A DNA stretch of 22,830 nt, from UHGV virus genome UHGV-0089399. One strand, written 5' to 3'. Shown here piece after piece: positions 3,945 to 20,005 of this stretch (within the stretch, counting starts at the first letter, position 1; the number at the start of each line of letters is the position of its first letter). The stretch is from a virus. The position numbers were made by a program, and so were the translations under genes. A model generated the notes under the pieces. That model searched no databases. It saw only the letters and a program-made list of their open reading frames with translations, and was not told the origin of the DNA.

Positions 3945-6551
3945 TTATTTCCTGCAAACTCCAGATGATGTTAATCCATCAAAAATAACCTGCACTCTGG
4001 CAATAACAACATCAACTCCAGAAGTCGTTTCACTTGCATAACCAAGTTTTATTTTAGATACAATATCCTGAGTAAGTTCAGATATTTCAGTTTCTGCAAT
4101 GTTACCAGAGGCCATGTGATTATCGTATGCCATAGAATGAATTCCATTATTGACATCGATTGAACTAGTATGTTTGTGAAAAATAGATGGGTTTACCTGA
4201 AACGAATTTGAACCGATAAGATCAGAAGATACTCCATTCATCACTGCAGTACAGCGTGGAATATTATTATCGGTTATTGTCATATGCAGACGGTTACCAG
4301 TTAACCCCTCACCAAGTGTGACATAATACGCCAATTCTCCACCTGCATATTGTTTCCCCTCAACAATAACAGTAATCCCTCTTAATTTCTGATTAGCTAG
4401 CAAAAACTTATTACTGTCTATATAGCATTTATTTGCGGAACCAAAAACAGCCCCTTCTAAAATATCTGATGAATAGGAATAAATAAGGTCACCAGAAACA
4501 AAGGAAAGAATATCAGATACGTTTCCTTTTTTAGATAAGTTGGGAGAATAGCTATTAACTATTTCATATTGTCCTGTGATAAAATCAAGGTAAACGCCAT
4601 CAGTTTTCATCTCTTTAAAGAAAATGCTATTAAAGCATCCATCAAGAACCGGTGGATATATTCTAGAGCTTGCATAAGCTGTTGGGTGATTCTTATTATT
4701 ACCACTACCAGGCGAATAAACATCTTCGTTAGTCATTGACTTTTTAAGCTTAACAGGAATCATCGGCTGCATATCAATTTTGCAGTTCCCTGAACCACCG
4801 ATGCGAGGATAAAATAAACCACCAAACCTTACAATATTACTACTGAATAGTATTTCGTTATCGTTAAGTGTTATCTCAACGAAGTTTCCAATAAGTTTAA
4901 ATTCAACTGAAAACAAACCAAGTGGAGCAGATAATTTAACAATATTGCGCATAAAAACACCTACAGTCCCTGTTGATGCAGTATAGTGTGTGGTTTCAAA
5001 GGCAGAGCCTGTATATTTCAAGTTAATGAAATTATTATGGTATGAAGACAATTGGAATTGAATCCCAGAACTAAGGATTTCAATATCTACAAATTGAATC
5101 CTTACGGAGTAAGAATATGATAAATCTTCATATTCATAAGGCAATGTAACATCTTTTGAAATAGTTGCCCTCACATAATTACCAGAAACCACATCAACCC
5201 CATCACGTACTGCATTAAAGTAACGATTAAAATCAATAAGCCCAGCGCCAACATACTGCGCATATGAACGAGTCCATCCTGCCATTGCGTTTCGTCCATT
5301 CTGAGCTTCTAAACTGCTAAATTCAGAGTCACTTGTGGTACTTGATGGGAGGATATTTGTACAAAAAACAATTTCAGGCATTGAAGTAATATCATTCAGT
5401 TCAGCCATCAATTTAAAAAAAGTTTTCTGCGGGAAGTTACCAACATCCCAACCATCTCCGTCATTCATGCCAAAAGCAATAATAACAACATCAGGGTTAA
5501 TATCACGAATGTAATCAATCCAGCGTCTGTTCGTGTCTGAATACCATGGGTACTGTGAGTTATAAGAAGTAATTGCTGGTGTATCTTTTCCAAGGTCATA
5601 GTACCTCATTCCACCAATTGCTCTGTTAAATAAAGTAGAACTTGGGAATTTCTCTTGCAAAACTCTCTTAAGATGAGCGGCAAAAATGCTTGATCGATCC
5701 ACTGTGCTTATATTATATGGGGCACTTAAGCTGTCACCAACTAACACTATTTTTGAGTTAGGCCTTGATAATCTCTCAAGTGTTTTAGATGTGACTAAAC
5801 TGCAGGAATTAATGAACTGAGTACTATTTAGCGTCTGTTCAAGTGTATCACCAAATCTGGTACCAACGTATGATGATCCGTTGACACTTGCTAGCTTAAG
5901 GCATAAATCAGCAGTATCTGTAATTGAAAAAATAGGAACAGGACGTCCTAAACTGTCATACCCCTGAATTGAGTTTGCCCTAGAAGATGCTGATGCCATT
6001 TCGCTTACTATCTCAGGGAAGCGGAGTGTTTTAGATATGTTGCTGTTAATAACTCCTTTGATAGATGAGTCTGTATATTTCTTCGTGGAAGCGTCCTGAG
6101 GAAATAATGGATCATCAAGGTTACGAATACGATTGCCGAGTGCATCGTAGTAAGTGGCACTAAATGATGGTTTACGAAGAGCCAGCCGAGCCATGCTTTT
6201 GACTAACTGGATCAGCATCGTTAGCTTATCAAAAGCATCCTCATGCACTTCCGCAAAGAACTTACCCTGATTGCGCAGATCAGTTTCCTGTGTAACCGGT
6301 AGCTCTCGTGATATAGAAATCTTATAGCCATTGGCCAACGCCTTCGACAATATTACATTTCCACCATTGTATCCTCCGGCCCCGGTAACTATATAATCAG
6401 TATCAAGAGTCAGTACGGTGATATTTTCATGAATATCAACAACCTGCACAATCAAATCAGATTTATTGAAAACCCTAAAGGCATACGGAAACGATGTCGT
6501 AACGCCGTTACCGGTGTATTCGTTGTGGTCAACTTCGGTTGAGACCGTCAT
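3945..6551 (-). CDS. Tail fiber/tailspike with T7 gp17-like N-terminal anchor and SGNH/GDSL hydrolase (esterase-like) domain
   Basis: 868 aa. N-terminus (EYTGNGVTTSFPYAFRVF...LTLDTDYIV) resembles the conserved T7 tail-fiber N-terminal domain. Central GDS block (VLVGDSLSAPY), a conserved Gly block and a GxND block (VVIIAFGMNDG) are typical of SGNH hydrolases. GGAG ribosome-binding site upstream. Confidence 0.8.
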   Translation of the reverse strand: MTVSTEVDHNEYTGNGVTTSFPYAFRVFNKSDLIVQVVDIHENITVLTLDTDYIVTGAGGYNGGNVILSKALANGYKISISRELPVTQETDLRNQGKFFAEVHEDAFDKLTMLIQLVKSMARLALRKPSFSATYYDALGNRIRNLDDPLFPQDASTKKYTDSSIKGVINSNISKTLRFPEIVSEMASASSRANSIQGYDSLGRPVPIFSITDTADLCLKLASVNGSSYVGTRFGDTLEQTLNSTQFINSCSLVTSKTLERLSRPNSKIVLVGDSLSAPYNISTVDRSSIFAAHLKRVLQEKFPSSTLFNRAIGGMRYYDLGKDTPAITSYNSQYPWYSDTNRRWIDYIRDINPDVVIIAFGMNDGDGWDVGNFPQKTFFKLMAELNDITSMPEIVFCTNILPSSTTSDSEFSSLEAQNGRNAMAGWTRSYAQYVGAGLIDFNRYFNAVRDGVDVVSGNYVRATISKDVTLPYEYEDLSYSYSVRIQFVDIEILSSGIQFQLSSYHNNFINLKYTGSAFETTHYTASTGTVGVFMRNIVKLSAPLGLFSVEFKLIGNFVEITLNDNEILFSSNIVRFGGLFYPRIGGSGNCKIDMQPMIPVKLKKSMTNEDVYSPGSGNNKNHPTAYASSRIYPPVLDGCFNSIFFKEMKTDGVYLDFITGQYEIVNSYSPNLSKKGNVSDILSFVSGDLIYSYSSDILEGAVFGSANKCYIDSNKFLLANQKLRGITVIVEGKQYAGGELAYYVTLGEGLTGNRLHMTITDNNIPRCTAVMNGVSSDLIGSNSFQVNPSIFHKHTSSIDVNNGIHSMAYDNHMASGNIAETEISELTQDIVSKIKLGYASETTSGVDVVIARVQVIFDGLTSSGVCRK

Positions 6552-6654
6552 GTTAAATCTCCAGATAGTCGCAGCACCCGTTGCGCCGCATATCTGGTTA
6601 TTCTATTACCTGAAAAACCATATATGTATAGAAAGACTATAAATACCAATAGAT

Positions 6655-6671
6655 ATTACCTTTATGGTAAT
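6655..6671. promoter_or_regulatory. Palindromic operator-like site ATTACC-N5-GGTAAT (copy 1 of 3)
   Basis: Perfect 6-bp inverted arms with a 5-nt spacer, in the divergent region between the tailspike and the plus-strand accessory operon. Confidence 0.4.
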
Positions 6672-6709
6672 TTGCAAAACGTGCTGGATAGCAAACAAAT
6701 TATTTGATA

Positions 6710-6725
6710 CTGTATAAATATACAG
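6710..6725. promoter_or_regulatory. LexA (SOS) box, CTGT-N8-ACAG
   Basis: CTGTATAAATATACAG is a near-perfect match to the LexA consensus CTGT(AT)4ACAG. Lies about 20 bp upstream of the 6747 start and overlaps the likely promoter (TTGATA upstream). Confidence 0.6.
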
Positions 6726-6746
6726 TTATTGCATGGAGAAGATAAG

Positions 6747-7004
6747 ATGCAGCGGTATCACTATCCACTGGAAGACGGATTTACCGAAAGGATTCACACG
6801 CCGGGAGGCGTCAGGTCACTGGTGGAGGGATCGCACTTGATGAAATTACTCCGGGATCTCGATAAGGATGGATTTAATGTCGATGGCCCACTTGCCGAAC
6901 TGACTGCACTGATTAACTACGTCACCAGCTCACAGATGTCTATGCGGGATCTGCAAACACATCTCGACTATTGTGCCGAACAATTACGAAAACAAACCAG
7001 ATAA
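6747..7004 (+). CDS. Small protein paralogous to the C-terminal domain of the downstream Bro-N protein
   Basis: GGAG ribosome-binding site 8 nt upstream of the ATG. Residues ERIHTPGGVRSLVEGSHLMKLLRDLDKDGFNVDGPLAELTALINYV...MRDLQTHLDY align with RSLIHSPSGVLGLTENSLLMNLLNQLQEDGHDVSGAAAELTTMFCYI...LRDIQTHAEY of the 7319-8011 product. Confidence 0.55.
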   Translation: MQRYHYPLEDGFTERIHTPGGVRSLVEGSHLMKLLRDLDKDGFNVDGPLAELTALINYVTSSQMSMRDLQTHLDYCAEQLRKQTR

Positions 7005-7022
7005 GGTTTGCAATTACCAAGT

Positions 7023-7066
7023 GGAGTGCTTATATTTACCTTTGAGGTAAATTTACATCGCACTCC
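7023..7066. repeat. Compound inverted repeat containing palindrome copy 2 (ATTTACC-N5-GGTAAAT)
   Basis: Outer arms GGAGTGC (7023-7029) / GCACTCC (7060-7066) enclose inner arms ATTTACC (7034-7040) / GGTAAAT (7046-7052). Confidence 0.5.
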
Positions 7067-7143
7067 TCTTGTGCCATAGTAATCGGGCACTGGCAAAATC
7101 CGGTGCCGGGATTGGTCTCCCGGATTACTACAGAGGCACATAT

Positions 7144-7164
7144 GCCGCATAAGCGGTTTTTTTT
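7144..7164 (+). terminator. Weak intrinsic terminator/attenuator-like hairpin with U8 tract
   Basis: Short stem CCGC-ataa-GCGG followed by tttttttt, between the small ORF and the Bro-N gene. The stem is short, so function is uncertain. Confidence 0.35.
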
Positions 7165-7318
7165 ATGTGTAAAGCGCACCTATTCTATGGTGGGCTGTGT
7201 GGGGGCACCGAAAGGTGCGCCGGGTTCCTTTGTAGCCGGTAAGACCAACTCTGCACAGTTCACCACCATCTGATTGGTCTCAGCGGTGGTGATTAACCTA
7301 ACTACAAAGGTGATCGCC

Positions 7319-8011
7319 ATGAATACCAAACCTTCCATCTTTTCCTTTGAGTCATCCTGCCAGATCCGTATGTTCATGATTGACGGAGAACCTTGGTTTG
7401 TCACCAAAGATGTGTGCAATGCTTTGAATATTGATGTTACACAAGCGAGAAAACTTGATAAAAAAGGCTGGAACAAAAAGGGGCTGTATTCAATACAGAC
7501 CCCTGGTGGAATACAAGAACTATCCATCGTTTCAGAATCAGGTCTCTACATCCTTATTCTGCGTTGCAAAGAGGCAATGACTGAGGGAACGAGAGCATTC
7601 AGATTTCTTGAATGGGTTACAGGCGAGGTTCTTCCTCAGATCCGCCGCACCGGAAGTTACATTAAAAACTCGCTACCGCAGGAAGAACGCATAAAGATGG
7701 TTGCCGACCAGGTAGCCAACGCCACGGCGTCAGCAGTAATGCAGGCGATGAAGATAGAGAACAAAACCTACAACGCCCCGCTGAAGCCCGGCTACCGCAG
7801 CCTGATTCATTCCCCGTCTGGTGTTCTCGGCCTGACGGAGAACTCACTGCTGATGAATCTGCTGAACCAGTTACAGGAAGACGGGCACGACGTATCGGGC
7901 GCGGCGGCGGAGCTGACCACCATGTTCTGCTACATCGTCGGTGTGAGCAAATGCCTGCGTGATATCCAGACGCACGCGGAGTACATCAACGACAAAGCAG
8001 GGTTCTTCTGA
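7319..8011 (+). CDS. Bro-N domain protein (phage antirepressor-like)
   Basis: N-terminal region (FSFESSCQIRMFMIDGEPWFVTKDVCNALN...ESGLYILILRCKEAMTEGTRAFRFLEWVTGEVLPQIRRTGSY) matches the Bro-N/KilA-N-type domain pattern. AGGTGA ribosome-binding site upstream of the ATG at 7319; the track ORF begins earlier at a non-ATG codon. Confidence 0.8.
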   Translation: MNTKPSIFSFESSCQIRMFMIDGEPWFVTKDVCNALNIDVTQARKLDKKGWNKKGLYSIQTPGGIQELSIVSESGLYILILRCKEAMTEGTRAFRFLEWVTGEVLPQIRRTGSYIKNSLPQEERIKMVADQVANATASAVMQAMKIENKTYNAPLKPGYRSLIHSPSGVLGLTENSLLMNLLNQLQEDGHDVSGAAAELTTMFCYIVGVSKCLRDIQTHAEYINDKAGFF

Positions 8012-8083
8012 CGGGCGGCGGCACAGGGATGTGCCTTTAAATAATTCTGTACAGATTGCAGACTGGGGGTGAATAGCGTACTA

Positions 8084-8098
8084 TTACCTTAAAGGTAA
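8084..8098. promoter_or_regulatory. Palindromic operator-like site TTACC-N5-GGTAA (copy 3 of 3)
   Basis: TTACC (8084-8088) and GGTAA (8094-8098) with a 5-nt spacer, about 45 bp upstream of the 8141 start codon. Same architecture as the sites at 6655-6671 and 7034-7052. Confidence 0.4.
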
Positions 8099-8140
8099 AC
8101 CTGTTTTTATTTTATACCTGTAACTTACCGGAGATTAAAG

Positions 8141-8467
8141 ATGACAAAACTTGGATTCGTGATGAGAGGTCCGGTAAGAAGCGGAACTCATGCAAAGCGT
8201 AGCAAGAGTCGTATTTTTACTGGTAAGGTTGTAGCACGTAAATCAGCTATTGGCTCGTTCAATAGTGAAAATGCGGCATTGCGCCATATTTTTATCAGCA
8301 CAAAGCCAAGAGCATCCGCTGATGTGCATACAATGACTATTCCTATCACAAAGAATATAAAGCGGATAAAAAAGCTCTCATCTGCAGAATCAAAAGAGAT
8401 ATCTTTCCGCCAGCTTAACTCATTAGAAACGCATATGAAGGAAGAGGAATTCGATGTTTTTGAGTGA
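8141..8467 (+). CDS. Hypothetical basic protein (108 aa), first gene of a coupled pair
   Basis: GGAG ribosome-binding site 8 nt upstream. Lys/Arg-rich N-terminus. The 3' end overlaps the next gene by 14 nt. AT-rich relative to flanking DNA. No motif I recognise. Confidence 0.5.
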   Translation: MTKLGFVMRGPVRSGTHAKRSKSRIFTGKVVARKSAIGSFNSENAALRHIFISTKPRASADVHTMTIPITKNIKRIKKLSSAESKEISFRQLNSLETHMKEEEFDVFE

Positions 8468-8966
8468 GTATAGCGGGAAGGTTATACCTACTGGTGAGTT
8501 TAAAACTGATGACTTTCTGATTTCGCTAAAAGATGCTTTTAAACAACACTGGCGTCATGGTCATCATCCTGATCTGGGAAAAGATACTCTTTTTGAAAGA
8601 CCAGACGAAGTATTAGGTTTCCATCTCAGAAAGGTTCATGTCAATATTGGTGAATATGCATCATATTCATACTCATGTACTGAACAGTGTTGGGATGAGT
8701 GGTCATATGGATTGATTGATGAACAAGGAAATTACAGGCCAAAACCAACCAGTAACGCATATCTCATATATGCAGTCAATGAAATAAGAGATGCAGCCTT
8801 ACTAGCTTATTGGGACCCGCCCGCACACACCAAAGCTAACGCAAAAGTTTGGATGGATTCCGTATTGAATTTCACAAAATTATTTCATGAACGAACGAAT
8901 ACAGCTCCACTTAGTAGAAATGTTTATCCGTGGGATTATTCGTACAAATCCAAAAAGCCTGCATAG
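8454..8966 (+). CDS. Hypothetical protein (170 aa), second gene of a coupled pair
   Basis: GAGG ribosome-binding site inside the upstream gene; start overlaps the upstream stop region. Contains a His-rich stretch (WRHGHHPD). No recognisable family. Confidence 0.5.
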   Translation: MFLSEYSGKVIPTGEFKTDDFLISLKDAFKQHWRHGHHPDLGKDTLFERPDEVLGFHLRKVHVNIGEYASYSYSCTEQCWDEWSYGLIDEQGNYRPKPTSNAYLIYAVNEIRDAALLAYWDPPAHTKANAKVWMDSVLNFTKLFHERTNTAPLSRNVYPWDYSYKSKKPA

Positions 8967-9047
8967 TAGTTTTTTATGGACGAAACAAAAGTCAGTGCTA
9001 CACTCATTGACGCCACATTGAGGTGGATTATAGATGGAAATTTCACA

Positions 9048-9209
9048 ATGAAAAAAGCATTTGCTGCACTGTTCGTTTTGTTGTCTCTGGTAGCTTCAAC
9101 TCAGGCCTTTGCCGGTCGTTGTCAGCACGACAGCGATACTGCCGCTGACGGCTCCCGCTGCGGTGGGCGTTCTGCGGATTCCCGCCCGGGCGGCGGTGGC
9201 ATTCGTTAA
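9048..9209 (+). CDS. Small secreted peptide (53 aa precursor) with Sec-type signal peptide
   Basis: MKKAFAALFVLLSLVASTQAFA-GRCQHD... with a predicted AFA-G cleavage site. The mature part is about 31 aa, Gly/Arg/Ser-rich with 2 Cys. The longer track ORF from 8976 lacks a ribosome-binding site and would bury the signal peptide. Confidence 0.4.
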   Translation: MKKAFAALFVLLSLVASTQAFAGRCQHDSDTAADGSRCGGRSADSRPGGGGIR

Positions 9210-9231: not shown

Positions 9232-9240
9232 TGTGACATG

Positions 9241-9537
9241 TCACGTCCCTTTTCTGAATGATAGCCATTCGAAAAATGATGACATTCCACCGCAGACAAT
9301 AGCAAAGATGATCCCACCAAAGAAGAGAAGGCCAGCCTGCCACCACTCCCACCGCCATACATCCACAGCGCCAACCATACCAACAATCGCTCCAACAAAT
9401 GGAATATAGCTCACGATGAAAGCAATGGGGGCTGCAATTATCCAGTGCAATCCCCACCATGATTCAAGCCCAGCCATAATTGCTGCCAACTGAAAAAGAC
9501 CAACGACGATATAAACAATGAATCCTATAGCTTGCAT
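9241..9537 (-). CDS. Small integral membrane protein (98 aa, about 3 TM helices)
   Basis: Strongly hydrophobic, Trp-rich sequence. AGGTGA ribosome-binding site 4 nt upstream of the ATG. Positioned after the ejection-protein genes. Confidence 0.6.
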   Translation of the reverse strand: MQAIGFIVYIVVGLFQLAAIMAGLESWWGLHWIIAAPIAFIVSYIPFVGAIVGMVGAVDVWRWEWWQAGLLFFGGIIFAIVCGGMSSFFEWLSFRKGT

Positions 9538-9732: not shown

Positions 9733-12207
9733 TTATTGCGGAGTGACATCCTGAGGTCGCCACCAGTATGTCTGGTTAAACTCTTTCTTCGAACGTTGCT
9801 CCATTTTACGCAAATAGCCTAGTGAAAAATACTCCTGCATCTGATTAAAGATCATGTGATCGAGAGCCGCCTTCAAGTACCAGAGATTCGCACCTGGCAT
9901 CAAACCTTTCCCCAGCTTCACCAGATCACCACCAGTCTGCTCACTCTTCCCTTCCACAGCATTTAACGGTATGCCCTGAGCAATCTTCACTACGTCATCA
10001 ACCAGACCAGCTACCGGGCCAAGCATCGACGCCAGCGCGCCGCTTCCGTACCTAGTGTGATCTGACAATAAAAAGTCACCATAAAGGCCAAGACCACCAC
10101 CTTTCAGTAGAGCACCAAGCCAGAATTTTGCGGCATCTTCTCCTGTCATCTCTCGAGGATTACGACCAGACGCAAGGTCGTTAAGTTGTTGCGACAAAGC
10201 GCCAAGAATGGTCGTACTGGCAATAAACGTCGCAATATATGCCGCACGCCCACCAGCAGACGGCATACCCATAGCGCGTGACCAGTGACGCATAACAACC
10301 GAGATAGGGAACGATTTAAACAGGAAAACACTTCTCGTTAATTCACCTTTCCATGTTCCACGCTGAATACCAGAACCGGTTATCAGTTGCTCACGTGCTC
10401 CCGGTGTAATAACAGCCATATCAACTTCTTCAGTTACGGCACCGAGCAGTTTACGCATTGCCTCAAATTTCACGCGTTCAGGCTCACCAAGATGTTTAAC
10501 TGCTGAATCAGGGATACGCATAATGCTTTCCGGTGTCAGCATCGTATTATTACCGTTCCCCCAGTCCTCCTGTTGCGCCAGCTTCCATACGCTCCAGTCT
10601 GTGTCAGTAATCCCTTTGCTTTTCAGGATACGAAAATCAGAGTCATCGAGGCTACGAAGGTCTGGTGTTCGTGACACTACTTCTCCCAGGCTTCCCATCA
10701 TGGTTACGCCATAGGCGCGCTTGTGCGCATCTGACCATGCTGTAAGCCCACTGGCACGCATTACCGCCGTTGCCGCCCAACGAGACACTGACGGCCCCAT
10801 ATTATCCATCGCCCAGCGGTTAACGCTGCCAAGTAGAGATTCCATCGCCAGACCAGCGCGGCGCGCCCGCGCAAGTTCTGTACGGTTCGTTGGGTCCATA
10901 GCTTCAAGCTGGTTGCGGAATAACTGGTTCATTGGAAGGTTGGTAACCTTCGCAGACAGATACATGGTTCCAAGATCAGAGAACGATGACAGCAACGCGG
11001 ATCCGAGTCTGCTGGCAACCAGCCAGTTGCGGATATTGTCAGACCATCGCGCGATGTGCGGATTCGCTACAGGCTGTGTCTTTCCGGAAATAAAGTTGTA
11101 CAGATTCTCTGTGTTGTTCGCTAGCCGCTCGACTTTACCGGTTTTACTCGGGTTAGCGGTTGCCGTTTCTGCCTTCACCTGATCAAGAAGAGAGCGGAAA
11201 ACATGATCGGGGTTTGGGCCATATGTTTCCACCAGTGCAATATCTTTACTGATACCTTCCAGGTGACCGACCATGATTTCCCATAGAGAGCGATCGCCAT
11301 AAAGTTGCTGATATTGCAGATAGGAATCTGCATCTTTGAAATGTATCTGTCGTGATGCATTACCACGGTTAGCACGTGCGCCGGAAATTCGCATTCCGGT
11401 ATCAGTAAGCTTATTCAGCCCACCAGTAGCGATCGTGTTATAAGCCTCTCCAAGAAATGCAGACAACTCGGCATCGTTCATCAGTTGTCCATCGGCTCGG
11501 ATATAATATTTGCGATCCAGCTTACCTATAACATCGCTAACCCACTTATCCTTTGATACCGCCCCAACCTTTTCCATAGAATGATGTTGAGGGATCCCCC
11601 AGTTTTCGAGATAGCCAATGTCCCCACCAGCATCATTAAACCGGCGGCGCAGCAGCTCTGTAACTTCTCTCCACGCCTTAGCACCTTTTCTTGCTTTAGC
11701 ATTGCCAGTATTTTGCCCCCGCATTTCATATACCAAGTCACGTACGCCCGCTTCATCTTCAAACAGACCAAAAAAGCGAGGATCAACTGCTTCGAATGCC
11801 TCCTGCAATTGACTCAATGCATAATCACGGGTGGCTTTTGTTCTGGATTCAACAGAGAGGAAATTAGATTTACCGTCTGCATTAAAAGCTATAGTACGGT
11901 TAAGAGCGCCAAGTTTCCCATCAGCCCCTTGATAGCTATTGATAAATTTATCCAATCTCTGACGCGCGGCTATAGTGAGAGCCACACGACGTTTCTTTAA
12001 TGCCGCTTCTCGCTGTAATTCTTCAGATGCCAATTGTGCTGCTCGATATAGCCGCTCTGATTCGGAAAGTTGTCGCCACGACATCGGGTCATCACGAGCA
12101 ATGGAGCGCATATTTCGATAAATGCGGTCTTCAATGTTCTGTATTTCTCGCGCCGTTAACGTGCGCTGCGCCGCCTGCTGGACCGCTTGTATACATTCCT
12201 GTCTCAT
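9733..12207 (-). CDS. Internal virion/ejection protein, gp16-like C-terminal part
   Basis: 824 aa. C-terminal region (FLFKSFPISVVMRHWSRAM...AAYIATFIASTTILGA) resembles the T7 gp16 C-terminal hydrophobic segment as recalled. GAGG ribosome-binding site upstream. Follows the 600-aa gene after a 5-nt gap. Confidence 0.65.
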   Translation of the reverse strand: MRQECIQAVQQAAQRTLTAREIQNIEDRIYRNMRSIARDDPMSWRQLSESERLYRAAQLASEELQREAALKKRRVALTIAARQRLDKFINSYQGADGKLGALNRTIAFNADGKSNFLSVESRTKATRDYALSQLQEAFEAVDPRFFGLFEDEAGVRDLVYEMRGQNTGNAKARKGAKAWREVTELLRRRFNDAGGDIGYLENWGIPQHHSMEKVGAVSKDKWVSDVIGKLDRKYYIRADGQLMNDAELSAFLGEAYNTIATGGLNKLTDTGMRISGARANRGNASRQIHFKDADSYLQYQQLYGDRSLWEIMVGHLEGISKDIALVETYGPNPDHVFRSLLDQVKAETATANPSKTGKVERLANNTENLYNFISGKTQPVANPHIARWSDNIRNWLVASRLGSALLSSFSDLGTMYLSAKVTNLPMNQLFRNQLEAMDPTNRTELARARRAGLAMESLLGSVNRWAMDNMGPSVSRWAATAVMRASGLTAWSDAHKRAYGVTMMGSLGEVVSRTPDLRSLDDSDFRILKSKGITDTDWSVWKLAQQEDWGNGNNTMLTPESIMRIPDSAVKHLGEPERVKFEAMRKLLGAVTEEVDMAVITPGAREQLITGSGIQRGTWKGELTRSVFLFKSFPISVVMRHWSRAMGMPSAGGRAAYIATFIASTTILGALSQQLNDLASGRNPREMTGEDAAKFWLGALLKGGGLGLYGDFLLSDHTRYGSGALASMLGPVAGLVDDVVKIAQGIPLNAVEGKSEQTGGDLVKLGKGLMPGANLWYLKAALDHMIFNQMQEYFSLGYLRKMEQRSKKEFNQTYWWRPQDVTPQ

Positions 12208-17534: not shown

Positions 17535-20005
17535 CAGAATCCCCCAACAGTAAGGCGAGGAATAACTGCAAGAACAGACAGCGGCAACGGATCAAGCTGA
17601 CGGATTTTTACACGTCCGTTTTTGCCCCAGTTACTGTCCAGTTTCACTTCTACTTTTCCGGTAGCATCATCAACAGGATCATCGTAGAACTCGAATTCAC
17701 GCTGTGGATATTCGTACCATTTACCGCCGGGCGTAGTCGCCCAGATGCCGCGACTGGCATTCACAACCAGAGTAACGGACGGGATCACCTGTTTTTTGTC
17801 CAGCAGCGTTTCCTGTCCGTTAATGTTGATATCCAGTGTTTCGAATTCAGCAGTTATTGGCAGGCCGATGTGCACTACAGCCCCCGGAGATTCCAGCGTG
17901 ACGGCACCTCCGGAAACCACTTTCTGTGGTTCCACGTTCGCATCAGAGAGGATGTTTACGGTCTGGCCTTCAAGATGAGACAAGCCGCCAAATGTCCGGC
18001 GCGCCATCTGCCAGTTCGTGGTGGCCACATTCCTGAGGGATGGCGGGACGTTCCTGTTAGCACGAACCACTACAGCGGTATTGCTGGTTACAGAAATAAT
18101 GTCGCAACGTAATTCTTTTGACACTTCATCGCCAATATCAGGAACAGTTCCGGCATAAGGGAACTGTAGTTGCGCGCCGACATCACTACTGGTGAAGTAC
18201 GCACCACCAGAAATACTGATTGTATATTCCGCGCGGTAATCCCATTCACCAGAACCACCAGTGATGGTCATCGTTCTGTCAGACGTATTTCTTCCATCAT
18301 AGCTAAGGCCAGAATCAACAAAGAAAGCATCTTCATCGCTGGTAAATAAACGGCTGGACAGTCGCTCTATGTATCTCACTGTTTGCCCGTTAACGGTTCG
18401 GTTAACGACGAAATACACCGCATCTTCATTGCCTTCGCTGATACTGCATGTGCTTTCATATTTCCCGGTACTGGATTGTGGTGCCCATGCAAAAACCTGC
18501 TGATCACGCAAATAGGTCATCACCAGTAATTTACCGTCATCACGAATGCAGAAGGCGCTGGAGTAAGGGACAATCGAGAAGCACCAGTCAACAATGCTGT
18601 GCTTCTGAAAAAGATGATTGGCAAGGATGGTCAGGTCGTTCCCCTGATAGCCGTCAACATCGAATGAGTAGGCCAGATCACGGACAACACTGCCTTTCTC
18701 CTGGACGAACAGAGCAATATTCGCCACGGCAATTGGTGGGACATTGCTCGAGCCATTTGATCCCTGAGAGCTGAATGCAAATGATGATGGGGTTAACACT
18801 TTGTTCTGGTCGCCGGTGATGACGTACTCACCTCCGGAAGTCAGCGCCACCAGCGAACCAACATCAATCAGGTGACGGATCTCATTAACCTGACGCCCGG
18901 CATAGGTGTAGATAATTCTGTCGTCATCCTGCGTAGGATTGCTTTTGCCAAAATCCTTATAATCCCCGGTACGGCTGGCCCAGATAGTCTGAGGGAACGC
19001 AGTCGATGCGGCGAAGTAAAGACGTTGTTGATAATAAACAACAGTGCCAGGATAACCATTAACTCTGTTCCAGGCATATTTAGCCCATTTATAGCTGGCA
19101 TTATCCTCGCCAACGACCTGCGAAGGGATATAGGAAATCACCTGGGCAGTTGCAGTAGTGCCATTTGCAACAGTGATACGGGCAATGCCAAAACCACTGT
19201 GCAGATATTCCCACTCAATGCCAGTATCATCATCTCCGGATCCGCCCCAGCCATCCCATGATGTGCCTTCTGTATGCGAAGGGCGCAAAGTGCCTGTTTT
19301 ACCTGCCGTAACAGCACGATAGTAGTTACTGTCTGCACGGCGAATATCGCCAATCGACGTACTCTTACTGGTTTCCCATACCGGTACTGAATCCACTGCT
19401 GGCTGTTCCAGATAGAACAATTTGCCTACCTGTTCCGCGCCAAAAATAGAGGCGTTTGCCGTTAACGTAATTGTCCCGGTGCTGGCGCTGGCATAAACCG
19501 TCACTGACTCGTCAATATTGATATCTTCAAATGGCCCGTTCTTCGTTACCACATCAACCAGTTGCCAGTTGTCATGCGCATAGCGGCGCAACTCTTTCGG
19601 CGGGTATGCCGGGTGAACCAGCGTAAGCACGTCGGCGCTTTGCGTGAATTTAATTCGGAACAGATCGGCTTCAGTATATGGCGTGGCAATTTCATAAATA
19701 ACATTGCTGCTGTTCAGCACCAACGCACCATCTTTGATAACGCGCATGTACTGGTGTCCGAACTCCAGAGCATAGGTCTGAACCGTCGAGAACTGGAACG
19801 GGATCAGACGGCATTTCCGATTTGGGTATTTGGCGGCACCGACAAAACGCGTACCAGGTCGATTCTCAACGCCGCCATACTGCCGCACGATAAAATTATC
19901 GCACTTGCGCAATGCCACCTGGTACTTCGCCATGTCGATACGTCCGAACAACGACGGTCCAATCTCACCACCGGCAAAGCTGGGCTGGATCCAACTGATA
20001 GCCAT
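17534..20005 (-). CDS. Tail tubular protein B, gp12-like
   Basis: 823 aa (T7 gp12 is about 794 aa). N-terminus MAISWIQPSFAGGEIGP...ENRPGTRF resembles the gp12 N-terminal pattern. Immediately downstream of the gp11-like gene with overlapping codons. Confidence 0.65.
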   Translation of the reverse strand: MAISWIQPSFAGGEIGPSLFGRIDMAKYQVALRKCDNFIVRQYGGVENRPGTRFVGAAKYPNRKCRLIPFQFSTVQTYALEFGHQYMRVIKDGALVLNSSNVIYEIATPYTEADLFRIKFTQSADVLTLVHPAYPPKELRRYAHDNWQLVDVVTKNGPFEDINIDESVTVYASASTGTITLTANASIFGAEQVGKLFYLEQPAVDSVPVWETSKSTSIGDIRRADSNYYRAVTAGKTGTLRPSHTEGTSWDGWGGSGDDDTGIEWEYLHSGFGIARITVANGTTATAQVISYIPSQVVGEDNASYKWAKYAWNRVNGYPGTVVYYQQRLYFAASTAFPQTIWASRTGDYKDFGKSNPTQDDDRIIYTYAGRQVNEIRHLIDVGSLVALTSGGEYVITGDQNKVLTPSSFAFSSQGSNGSSNVPPIAVANIALFVQEKGSVVRDLAYSFDVDGYQGNDLTILANHLFQKHSIVDWCFSIVPYSSAFCIRDDGKLLVMTYLRDQQVFAWAPQSSTGKYESTCSISEGNEDAVYFVVNRTVNGQTVRYIERLSSRLFTSDEDAFFVDSGLSYDGRNTSDRTMTITGGSGEWDYRAEYTISISGGAYFTSSDVGAQLQFPYAGTVPDIGDEVSKELRCDIISVTSNTAVVVRANRNVPPSLRNVATTNWQMARRTFGGLSHLEGQTVNILSDANVEPQKVVSGGAVTLESPGAVVHIGLPITAEFETLDININGQETLLDKKQVIPSVTLVVNASRGIWATTPGGKWYEYPQREFEFYDDPVDDATGKVEVKLDSNWGKNGRVKIRQLDPLPLSVLAVIPRLTVGGF

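Follow-up and report, generated by a model that had tools for sequence, protein, structure and literature searches.

Three palindromes in an epsilon15/phiV10-like prophage of Escherichia coli as probable operators of its lysogeny repressor

Which protein reads the three palindromes of common architecture that stand ahead of the accessory genes in the viral sequence UHGV-0089399, and what does it do there? The stretch analysed (22,830 bp; the window) comes from a prophage of E. coli strain 50579417 that resembles epsilon15 and phiV10 (Uetakevirus) and is inserted between yfgI and guaA; the prophage region is matched in 542 of 5426 complete E. coli genomes (about 10%). A preliminary description of the window had placed three copies of TTACC-N5-GGTAA in non-coding DNA in front of plus-strand genes or operons, and direct reading of the sequence bears this out for all three: site 1, ATTACCtttatGGTAAT, at 6655-6671; site 2, ATTTACCtttgaGGTAAAT, at 7034-7052; and site 3, TTACCttaaaGGTAA, at 8084-8098. 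A pattern search returns just these exact matches (starting at 6656, 7036 and 8084), and none in any of 100 dinucleotide-preserving shuffles of the window. Site 1 lies between the leftward-transcribed tailspike gene and a plus-strand gene for an 85-residue protein; site 2 follows the stop codon of the latter by 32 nt and is directly 5' of a match to the isrK RNA; site 3 is located 73 nt past a gene for a Bro-N protein and 43 nt ahead of the next open reading frame (ORF). The comparisons that follow make it very probable that the three are operators (O1, O2 and O3, below) of Rep, the master lysogeny repressor of this type of prophage.

The first of these comparisons concerns numbers. The complete prophage, 40.3 kb in a locus (L003) that extends over 48 kb with its host flanks, contains 11 exact copies of the motif and 4 copies with one mismatch, against 0.11 exact copies expected in the prophage from half-site frequencies; over the full locus, 16 matches at no more than one mismatch compare with 0.74 expected from shuffles. 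A 222-kb sample of host DNA taken from the chromosome that carries the prophage has 2 exact copies, which places the density of the motif in the prophage ~30-fold above the host sample and ~100-fold above the half-site expectation; enrichment over the host was one of the things that the preliminary description had looked to. An unbiased count of all inverted repeats of the 5-Nx-5 form ranks TTACC-N5-GGTAA first in the prophage, and the same motif ranks first in phiV10, epsilon15, SPC32H, Enterobacter phage Tyrion and Klebsiella phage BUCT711 (8-11 copies each), as well as in two prophages from other genera whose Rep proteins are 59-61% identical to the one considered here. The two host copies are at 2,006,768 and 4,610,737 of NZ_CP033884.1 (L093:6768 and L095:10737); one is intergenic, beside uhpA and a hypothetical gene, and the other is inside yddB. 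Chance occurrence in AT-rich DNA is ruled out by the shuffles and by the 222 kb of host DNA. A known host regulator was likewise considered and set aside, the copy number in the host being near background; we know of none that reads TTACC-N5-GGTAA.

The second comparison concerns placement. All 11 exact copies in the prophage are intergenic once the start of terS has been corrected, and copies of the motif head replication, packaging, head and accessory units. Two (at 34445 and 34493 of L003) lie between rep and a divergently transcribed cro-like gene, and two more (35205 and 35267, 62 bp apart) just downstream of rep. The motif thus brackets the repressor gene on both sides at the immunity region outside the window, where the preliminary description had proposed to look for it; the same layout recurs in phiV10, epsilon15 and two further prophages (L006 and L007). 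Another pair with a 62-bp separation (32100 and 32162) precedes DUF1064 and late-side genes; further copies stand ahead of terS, of an accessory gene and of the portal operon, and near int there is a copy with one mismatch. Exact 62-bp start-to-start pairs, a distance of about six helical turns, are also seen in phiV10, epsilon15, EC.W1-9 and L006, with one pair in L007. The spacing suggests that a Rep tetramer binds cooperatively, along a single face of the helix. As annotated, terS (L003 27690-28400) is probably 27 codons too long: homology with the TerS protein of epsilon15 begins at Met28, and the operator pair that overlaps the annotated gene (18 bp apart) consequently falls just upstream of the real start. 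A restriction or methylation motif was also considered, and is rejected because every copy is intergenic and promoter-proximal.

An operator consensus drawn from 150 distinct contexts, chosen for exact TTACC and GGTAA half-sites, is the 17-bp sequence W-TTACC-TTWAA-GGTAA-W, with A or T as the centre base in 98%; the spacer varies, with a preference for TTWAA, and all three sites of the window fit. At syntenic positions in relatives, searched at no more than one mismatch, variation is likewise found mostly in the spacer.

Rep itself is a protein of 194 residues encoded ~29 kb away (L003:34563-35147; WP_000836290.1), outside the window. It has an N-terminal YdaS/Cro-like helix-turn-helix domain and a central HTH_3 domain, is 100% identical to gp40 of phiV10 and to ORF21 of ZX5, and is homologous along its length to the Rep protein of SPC32H (PDB 5D50_A, E=4e-42). 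Overexpression of ZX5 ORF21 lowers endolysin and holin transcripts by >99.9% (PMC9782041). The RefSeq record of epsilon15 carries seven features designated "protein_bind: repressor / lysogeny", all of them ATTACC-N5-GGTAAT; the core of the window's sites is identical to these, and one of the annotated sites (19895-19911, in the intergenic region between ant and the tail-fibre gene) is syntenic with site 1. The motif has, then, already been annotated in epsilon15, and no new kind of system is revealed here.

Covariation between operator and repressor alleles is uninformative among Uetakeviruses, since eight Rep variants (42-100% identity) go with a constant motif and a constant N-terminal domain: residues 1-68, with the signature NLVxRW, are kept in 8 of 8 variants from motif-bearing genomes, and variants that are 42-78% identical overall retain both these 68 residues and the motif. 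An outgroup, Pseudomonas phage PseuP_224 (L091), a siphovirus with a 43-kb genome, was used instead; a search of genome contigs with Rep returned 2 loci. The cI protein of PseuP_224 shares only the N-terminal domain of Rep (39% identity over residues 4-68), its C-terminal region being different and longer. The genome of this phage has 4 matches to TTACC-N4-GGTAA, in which the spacer is one base shorter, against 0.31 expected, and all four lie immediately to either side of cI (10906-10945 and 11768-11820). The small genes that neighbour cI are unrelated to the Uetakevirus cro-like gene. Because this repressor shares only the N-terminal domain with Rep and its genome has the same half-sites, the half-site travels with that domain, and their co-occurrence is the strongest computational tie between the motif and Rep.

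By sequence, by the presence of a resident Rep homolog, by the bracketing of rep, by enrichment, by intergenic placement and by the co-occurrence of half-site and domain, the three sites are to be counted with the Rep operator set of epsilon15 and SPC32H. The preliminary description had offered the prophage repressor as a possible binder, and the epsilon15 annotation, the operators around rep and the half-site's tracking of the Rep N-terminal domain all argue for it. That description had also envisaged one dimeric DNA-binding protein: a single regulator is supported, but the simple dimer is not what the related SPC32H Rep, a tetramer of dimers, would lead one to expect. The features among which the three operators are set are collected in Table 1.

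Table 1. Operators and neighbouring features in the window.
Feature	Position	Strand	Basis and context
Tailspike gene, SGNH/GDSL esterase domain	3945..6551	-	Pfam Lipase_GDSL_2; leftward unit diverging from O1
Conserved block ATTCTATTACC..AACC.TATATG	6598..6626	-	Invariant columns in the alignment of the ant/tailspike intergenic region (seven phages, four genera)
Operator O1, ATTACC-TTTAT-GGTAAT (centre 6663)	6655..6671		Exact match; divergent tailspike/ant intergenic region; syntenic with epsilon15 19895-19911
LexA box TACTGTATAAATATACAGTT	6708..6727	+	Perfect box, direct reading; ahead of ant
ant, 85-residue antirepressor, ortholog of SPC32H Ant	6747..7004	+	PDB 5D50 chain E "Anti-repressor protein", E=3.5e-46
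Operator O2, ATTTACC-TTTGA-GGTAAAT	7034..7052		Exact match and promoter scan; abuts -35 of predicted isrK promoter
Predicted isrK promoter, TTTACA-17-CATAGT with TG extension	7052..7080	+	Consensus scan
isrK-like small RNA with intrinsic terminator	7087..7163	+	Rfam RF01394, 73.7 bits, full length
C4-type antisense RNA (P1/P7 immI type)	7183..7270	+	Rfam RF01695, 78.6 bits, full length
Bro-N protein, second antirepressor candidate (P1-Ant/AnrP-like)	7319..8011	+	Pfam Bro-N, E=1.9e-13; WP_001546910.1
Operator O3, A-TTACC-TTAAA-GGTAA-A	8083..8099		Exact match; junction of Bro-N module and variable cargo
Cargo: 108-residue ORF and overlapping 170-residue YafO-like toxin	8141..8966	+	Pfam YafO_toxin, weak (E=9.5e-4, below cutoff)
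Small membrane-anchored protein gene, right boundary of slot	9048..9209	+	WP_000708858.1; conserved

The accessory island in which the operators lie is not only cargo, as the preliminary description had supposed, since it holds Ant, a LexA box, isrK and C4 RNAs and a Bro-N protein; a secondary immunity region comes first and a cargo slot after it. O2 stands at the entrance to the RNA part. It ends on the first base of the predicted isrK -35 hexamer, and the Rfam isrK match has its 5' end at the start predicted from that promoter (~7087); the isrK-like RNA contains a terminator-like hairpin at 7144-7157. The C4 RNA gene lies upstream of the Bro-N ORF in the same transcription unit, as in immI regions of the P1 type. 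In 80 relatives from IMG/VR, O2 is always directly 5' of a conserved isrK promoter and only its spacer bases vary; this position holds whether its left neighbour is ant or an inserted two-gene module, which brings an operator of its own at a distance of 93 bp. Inside O2 is also the predicted start of a second promoter-like site, TTGCAA-17-TATATT (7008-7036). The succession of IsrK and C4 RNAs ahead of a Bro-N gene combines the isrK-anrP arrangement of Gifsy-1 with a P1 immI-like layout, in a podovirus prophage. A putative parallel to the Bro-N protein is ORF4 of ZX5: its annotation is that of an anti-repressor whose N-terminal domain belongs to the Bro family, and its overexpression favours lytic growth (PMC9782041).

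O1 and ant form the other part of this secondary immunity region. In an alignment of the ant/tailspike intergenic region of seven phages, the half-sites of O1 are nearly invariant (the right half-site of phiV10 is GGTGA) and the spacer is variable. The LexA box retains CTGT-N8-ACAG in the six enterobacterial Uetakevirus sequences of this alignment, with ATGT in Klebsiella phage BUCT711. In SPC32H, ant is reportedly under LexA control, and by analogy the LexA box and ant are taken here as the SOS input of the prophage switch. The window's ant gene is labelled in RefSeq as a "hypothetical protein" only. The best candidate for the -35 hexamer of a LexA-overlapped ant promoter stands ~14 bp downstream of O1, and a candidate leftward tailspike promoter ~70 bp from it. 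The latter is probably represented by the conserved block at 6598-6626, which lies, like the lone TTACC half-site within it, ~50 bp from O1 and would serve the tailspike and lysis genes. The esterase domain suggests that the tailspike deacetylates O-antigen or capsule and is not a glycosidase.

At O3 a -10-like hexamer, TACTAT (8079-8084; TAATAT where the alternative left flank is present), has the first T of the palindrome as its last base. The predicted start would therefore fall in the centre of the operator, the classical geometry of occlusion.

A mechanism that would join these elements runs as follows. In the lysogen, the N-terminal helix-turn-helix of Rep would read the TTACC half-sites, with Rep assembled, by homology with the SPC32H protein, as a tetramer of dimers. 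SPC32H Rep is a tetramer when bound to DNA, with its DNA-binding pairs drawn from different dimers (PMC9638917, citing Kim et al. 2016), and the fold by which it tetramerizes has been connected with the looping of DNA (PMC9986798). Rep would occupy about 11-14 operators, one or two of them heading nearly every transcription unit. In the window it would be bound at O1 between the divergent ant and tailspike-lysis units, at O2 on the upstream edge of the promoter for isrK, C4 RNA and Bro-N, and at O3 over the predicted start of a promoter driving the swappable cargo slot. Its occupancy would most likely keep these units shut or throttled. On DNA damage, LexA would leave its box ahead of ant, and the Ant protein would bind Rep and strip it from all operators at once, whereupon the cargo and the second antirepressor module would be switched on along with the lytic genes. 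The precedent is SPC32H, in which LexA is said to control ant and Ant reportedly binds Rep and releases it from DNA (Kim & Ryu 2013; Kim et al. 2016), and in which Rep is reportedly not cleavable by RecA and is inactivated by Ant instead. A Rep-Ant complex in the present prophage would agree with PDB 5D50, which contains homologs of both proteins. Both the binding of Rep at O1-O3 and its acting there by repression rather than by activation are what we infer from sequence, and it is over the direction of control that this proposal is least secure.

Several observations weigh against it, in whole or in part. O2 is centred at about -44 of the isrK promoter, a position like that of lambda CI at PRM, and a protein bound there should be able to activate. 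At O1, simple occlusion is not obvious because of the distances to the candidate ant -35 hexamer and tailspike promoter; inspection by eye of O1, and of the operator of the inserted two-gene module, found no convincing -35/-10 pair. The binding-site annotation of epsilon15 may itself be a prediction. The Rep proteins of epsilon15 and phiV10, only 42% identical, share the same core motif, so that the core palindrome alone fails to explain immunity specificity. Finally, a Cro-like protein may use the same sites.

The first of these points leads to the alternative with the best odds, unlikely as we consider it: that Rep activates at some of its operators, most clearly at O2, where it would sustain the production of IsrK and C4 RNAs in the lysogen while the Bro-N antirepressor stays untranslated. 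An operator that ends at the -35 hexamer reproduces the geometry of lambda OR2, from which CI activates PRM. A P1 lysogen needs its C4 RNA for the silencing of ant, and a supply of such RNA in the present lysogen would make similar sense. The isrK promoter of Gifsy-1, which drives isrK-orf45-anrP, is active in lysogens (PMC4825925). Set against these parallels, the second promoter-like site with its start inside O2 would be occluded by a protein bound there, and O3 and the operators that flank rep lie over predicted starts or -10 regions, which fits repression.

The possibility of a Cro-like reader leads to a second alternative, that another phage regulator and not Rep recognizes the palindrome. 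The prophage does encode several small regulators (a 76-residue Cro-like protein, a gp49/N15-gp46-like regulator, AlpA and PerC), and Cro shares the operators of CI in switches of the lambda type, so that shared use is plausible. Exclusive use by one of these proteins is improbable: the operators bracket rep, the epsilon15 record assigns its sites to the repressor, and the half-site recurs around the cI gene of PseuP_224, whose two small neighbours are unrelated to the Uetakevirus Cro-like protein.

With Rep retained as the probable reader, O3 presents a feature of a different kind, since it is located at the edge of a slot of variable content (8099-9047 of the window and the equivalent position in loci L008-L087). 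At least nine unrelated cassettes occupy this slot, among them two pairs with a YafO-like toxin, one DUF4760 protein and a number of products of no recognized kind; the RefSeq name of the 170-residue cargo product of the window is YafO family toxin. The small membrane-protein gene follows every cargo variant except ctx9 (L043). A defence-system search with ten cargo proteins gave no PADLOC hits, and Pfam matches were confined to DUF4760 and YafO_toxin. To the left of O3 stands one of two unrelated flanks. The cargo of the window is found, 100% identical over 400 nt, behind both of them, as are three other cargo types, and the mosaic breakpoints fall exactly at the 15-bp palindrome. The operator thus marks the cargo slot and may help to create it. 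What this could amount to is an operator that doubles as a mosaic junction, with swapped cargo and an RNA-gated antirepressor wired to the master switch and firing on induction or infection, unlike classical morons, which are expressed in the lysogen; we put this forward tentatively, as a possibility for which the odds are not yet favourable.

The same breakpoints might be explained by palindromes that are kept mainly as short homology linkers for the recombination of modules and that contribute little or nothing to regulation at sites 2 and 3. The four cargo types found with both flanks would fit such a function, as would the constant place of O2 at the left end of the isrK module, irrespective of what stands before it. 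Fifteen base pairs is, however, very short for recombination; the same sequence stands at the immunity region and at the start of each of the other units, where no module exchange is seen; and the pattern is equally what one would expect if selection kept a functional operator at each promoter. As a replacement for the operator function this account is very improbable; a role in recombination is possible as a second function, and the two are not exclusive. That the inverted repeats act as RNA hairpins, terminators or processing sites can scarcely be credited and is rejected, for although site 2, 32 nt past the ant stop codon, can form an AT-rich stem of 7-8 bp followed by TTTACAT, stem stability is low (-4.2 to -6.5 kcal/mol), shuffled sequence folds as well as O3 does (z = -0.47), 0 of 3 sites pass a terminator scan, variation at syntenic positions (the search at no more than one mismatch) is mainly in the loop, with stem departures that are single and uncompensated (GGTGA) rather than compensatory pairs, and other copies of the motif lie in untranscribed divergent promoter regions.

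Placed beside known systems, the prophage is closest to SPC32H and epsilon15, with which it shares the palindrome ATTACC-N5-GGTAAT in 10-11 exact copies; SPC32H has in addition the homologous Rep and Ant of PDB 5D50 and the same LexA box ahead of ant, and epsilon15 the syntenic operator in the ant/tailspike intergenic region. Its Rep is only about 42% identical overall to those of SPC32H and epsilon15, and both phages lack the isrK/C4/Bro-N module as well as the cargo slot after ant, so that O2 and O3 have no counterpart in them. P1 and P7 are alike in having one master repressor (C1) with operators dispersed over the genome, one of which heads a module of a C4-type RNA and an antirepressor: Op51 stands ahead of the immI operon (c4 RNA-icd-ant). 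They differ in that C1 is unrelated to Rep and that its operator is an asymmetric 17-mer and not a palindrome; the present prophage has, moreover, an IsrK-type small RNA before C4 and a separate, LexA-controlled small Ant. In Gifsy-1 of Salmonella, the isrK promoter drives an isrK small RNA with a leaky terminator and, after it, a C4-like RNA that is processed and an antirepressor gene of the Bro type (PMC4825925). Gifsy-1 is a lambdoid siphovirus with a different repressor, whereas the 5' edge of the module considered here carries what is probably an operator of the resident Uetakevirus Rep. The immI region of P22 is similar in being a secondary immunity region beside the tailspike gene with an antirepressor that is silent in the lysogen; there, Mnt and Arc operators control ant, whereas the present prophage is without proteins of the Arc/Mnt type and its main repressor itself appears to hold the region. 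The flanking of the repressor gene by paired operators at fixed spacing is a likeness to OR and OL of lambda.

For a prophage family that is present in about a tenth of complete E. coli genomes, the result is a regulatory map in which the lytic genes, a variable cargo locus and two antirepressor modules all appear to answer to one repressor through its 11-14 operators. The map predicts which accessory genes, toxin-like cargo included, would be silent in lysogens and released on SOS induction. The sequence W-TTACC-N5-GGTAA-W can serve as a tag for annotating the starts of transcription units and the boundaries of modules in these phages, some of which (phiV10 and SPC32H) are in use as reporter phages. 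The main interest lies in the observation on the cargo slot.

A second perfect palindrome, GTGACATGTCAC, is found at the ends of transcription units: at 9233-9244 of the window, at 28433-28444 of L003, and at 2145, 19634, 38629 and 26696 of SPC32H (L088), the last of these genomes having 7 hits at no more than one mismatch against 1.0 expected. It could be the site of another regulator or a part of terminators.

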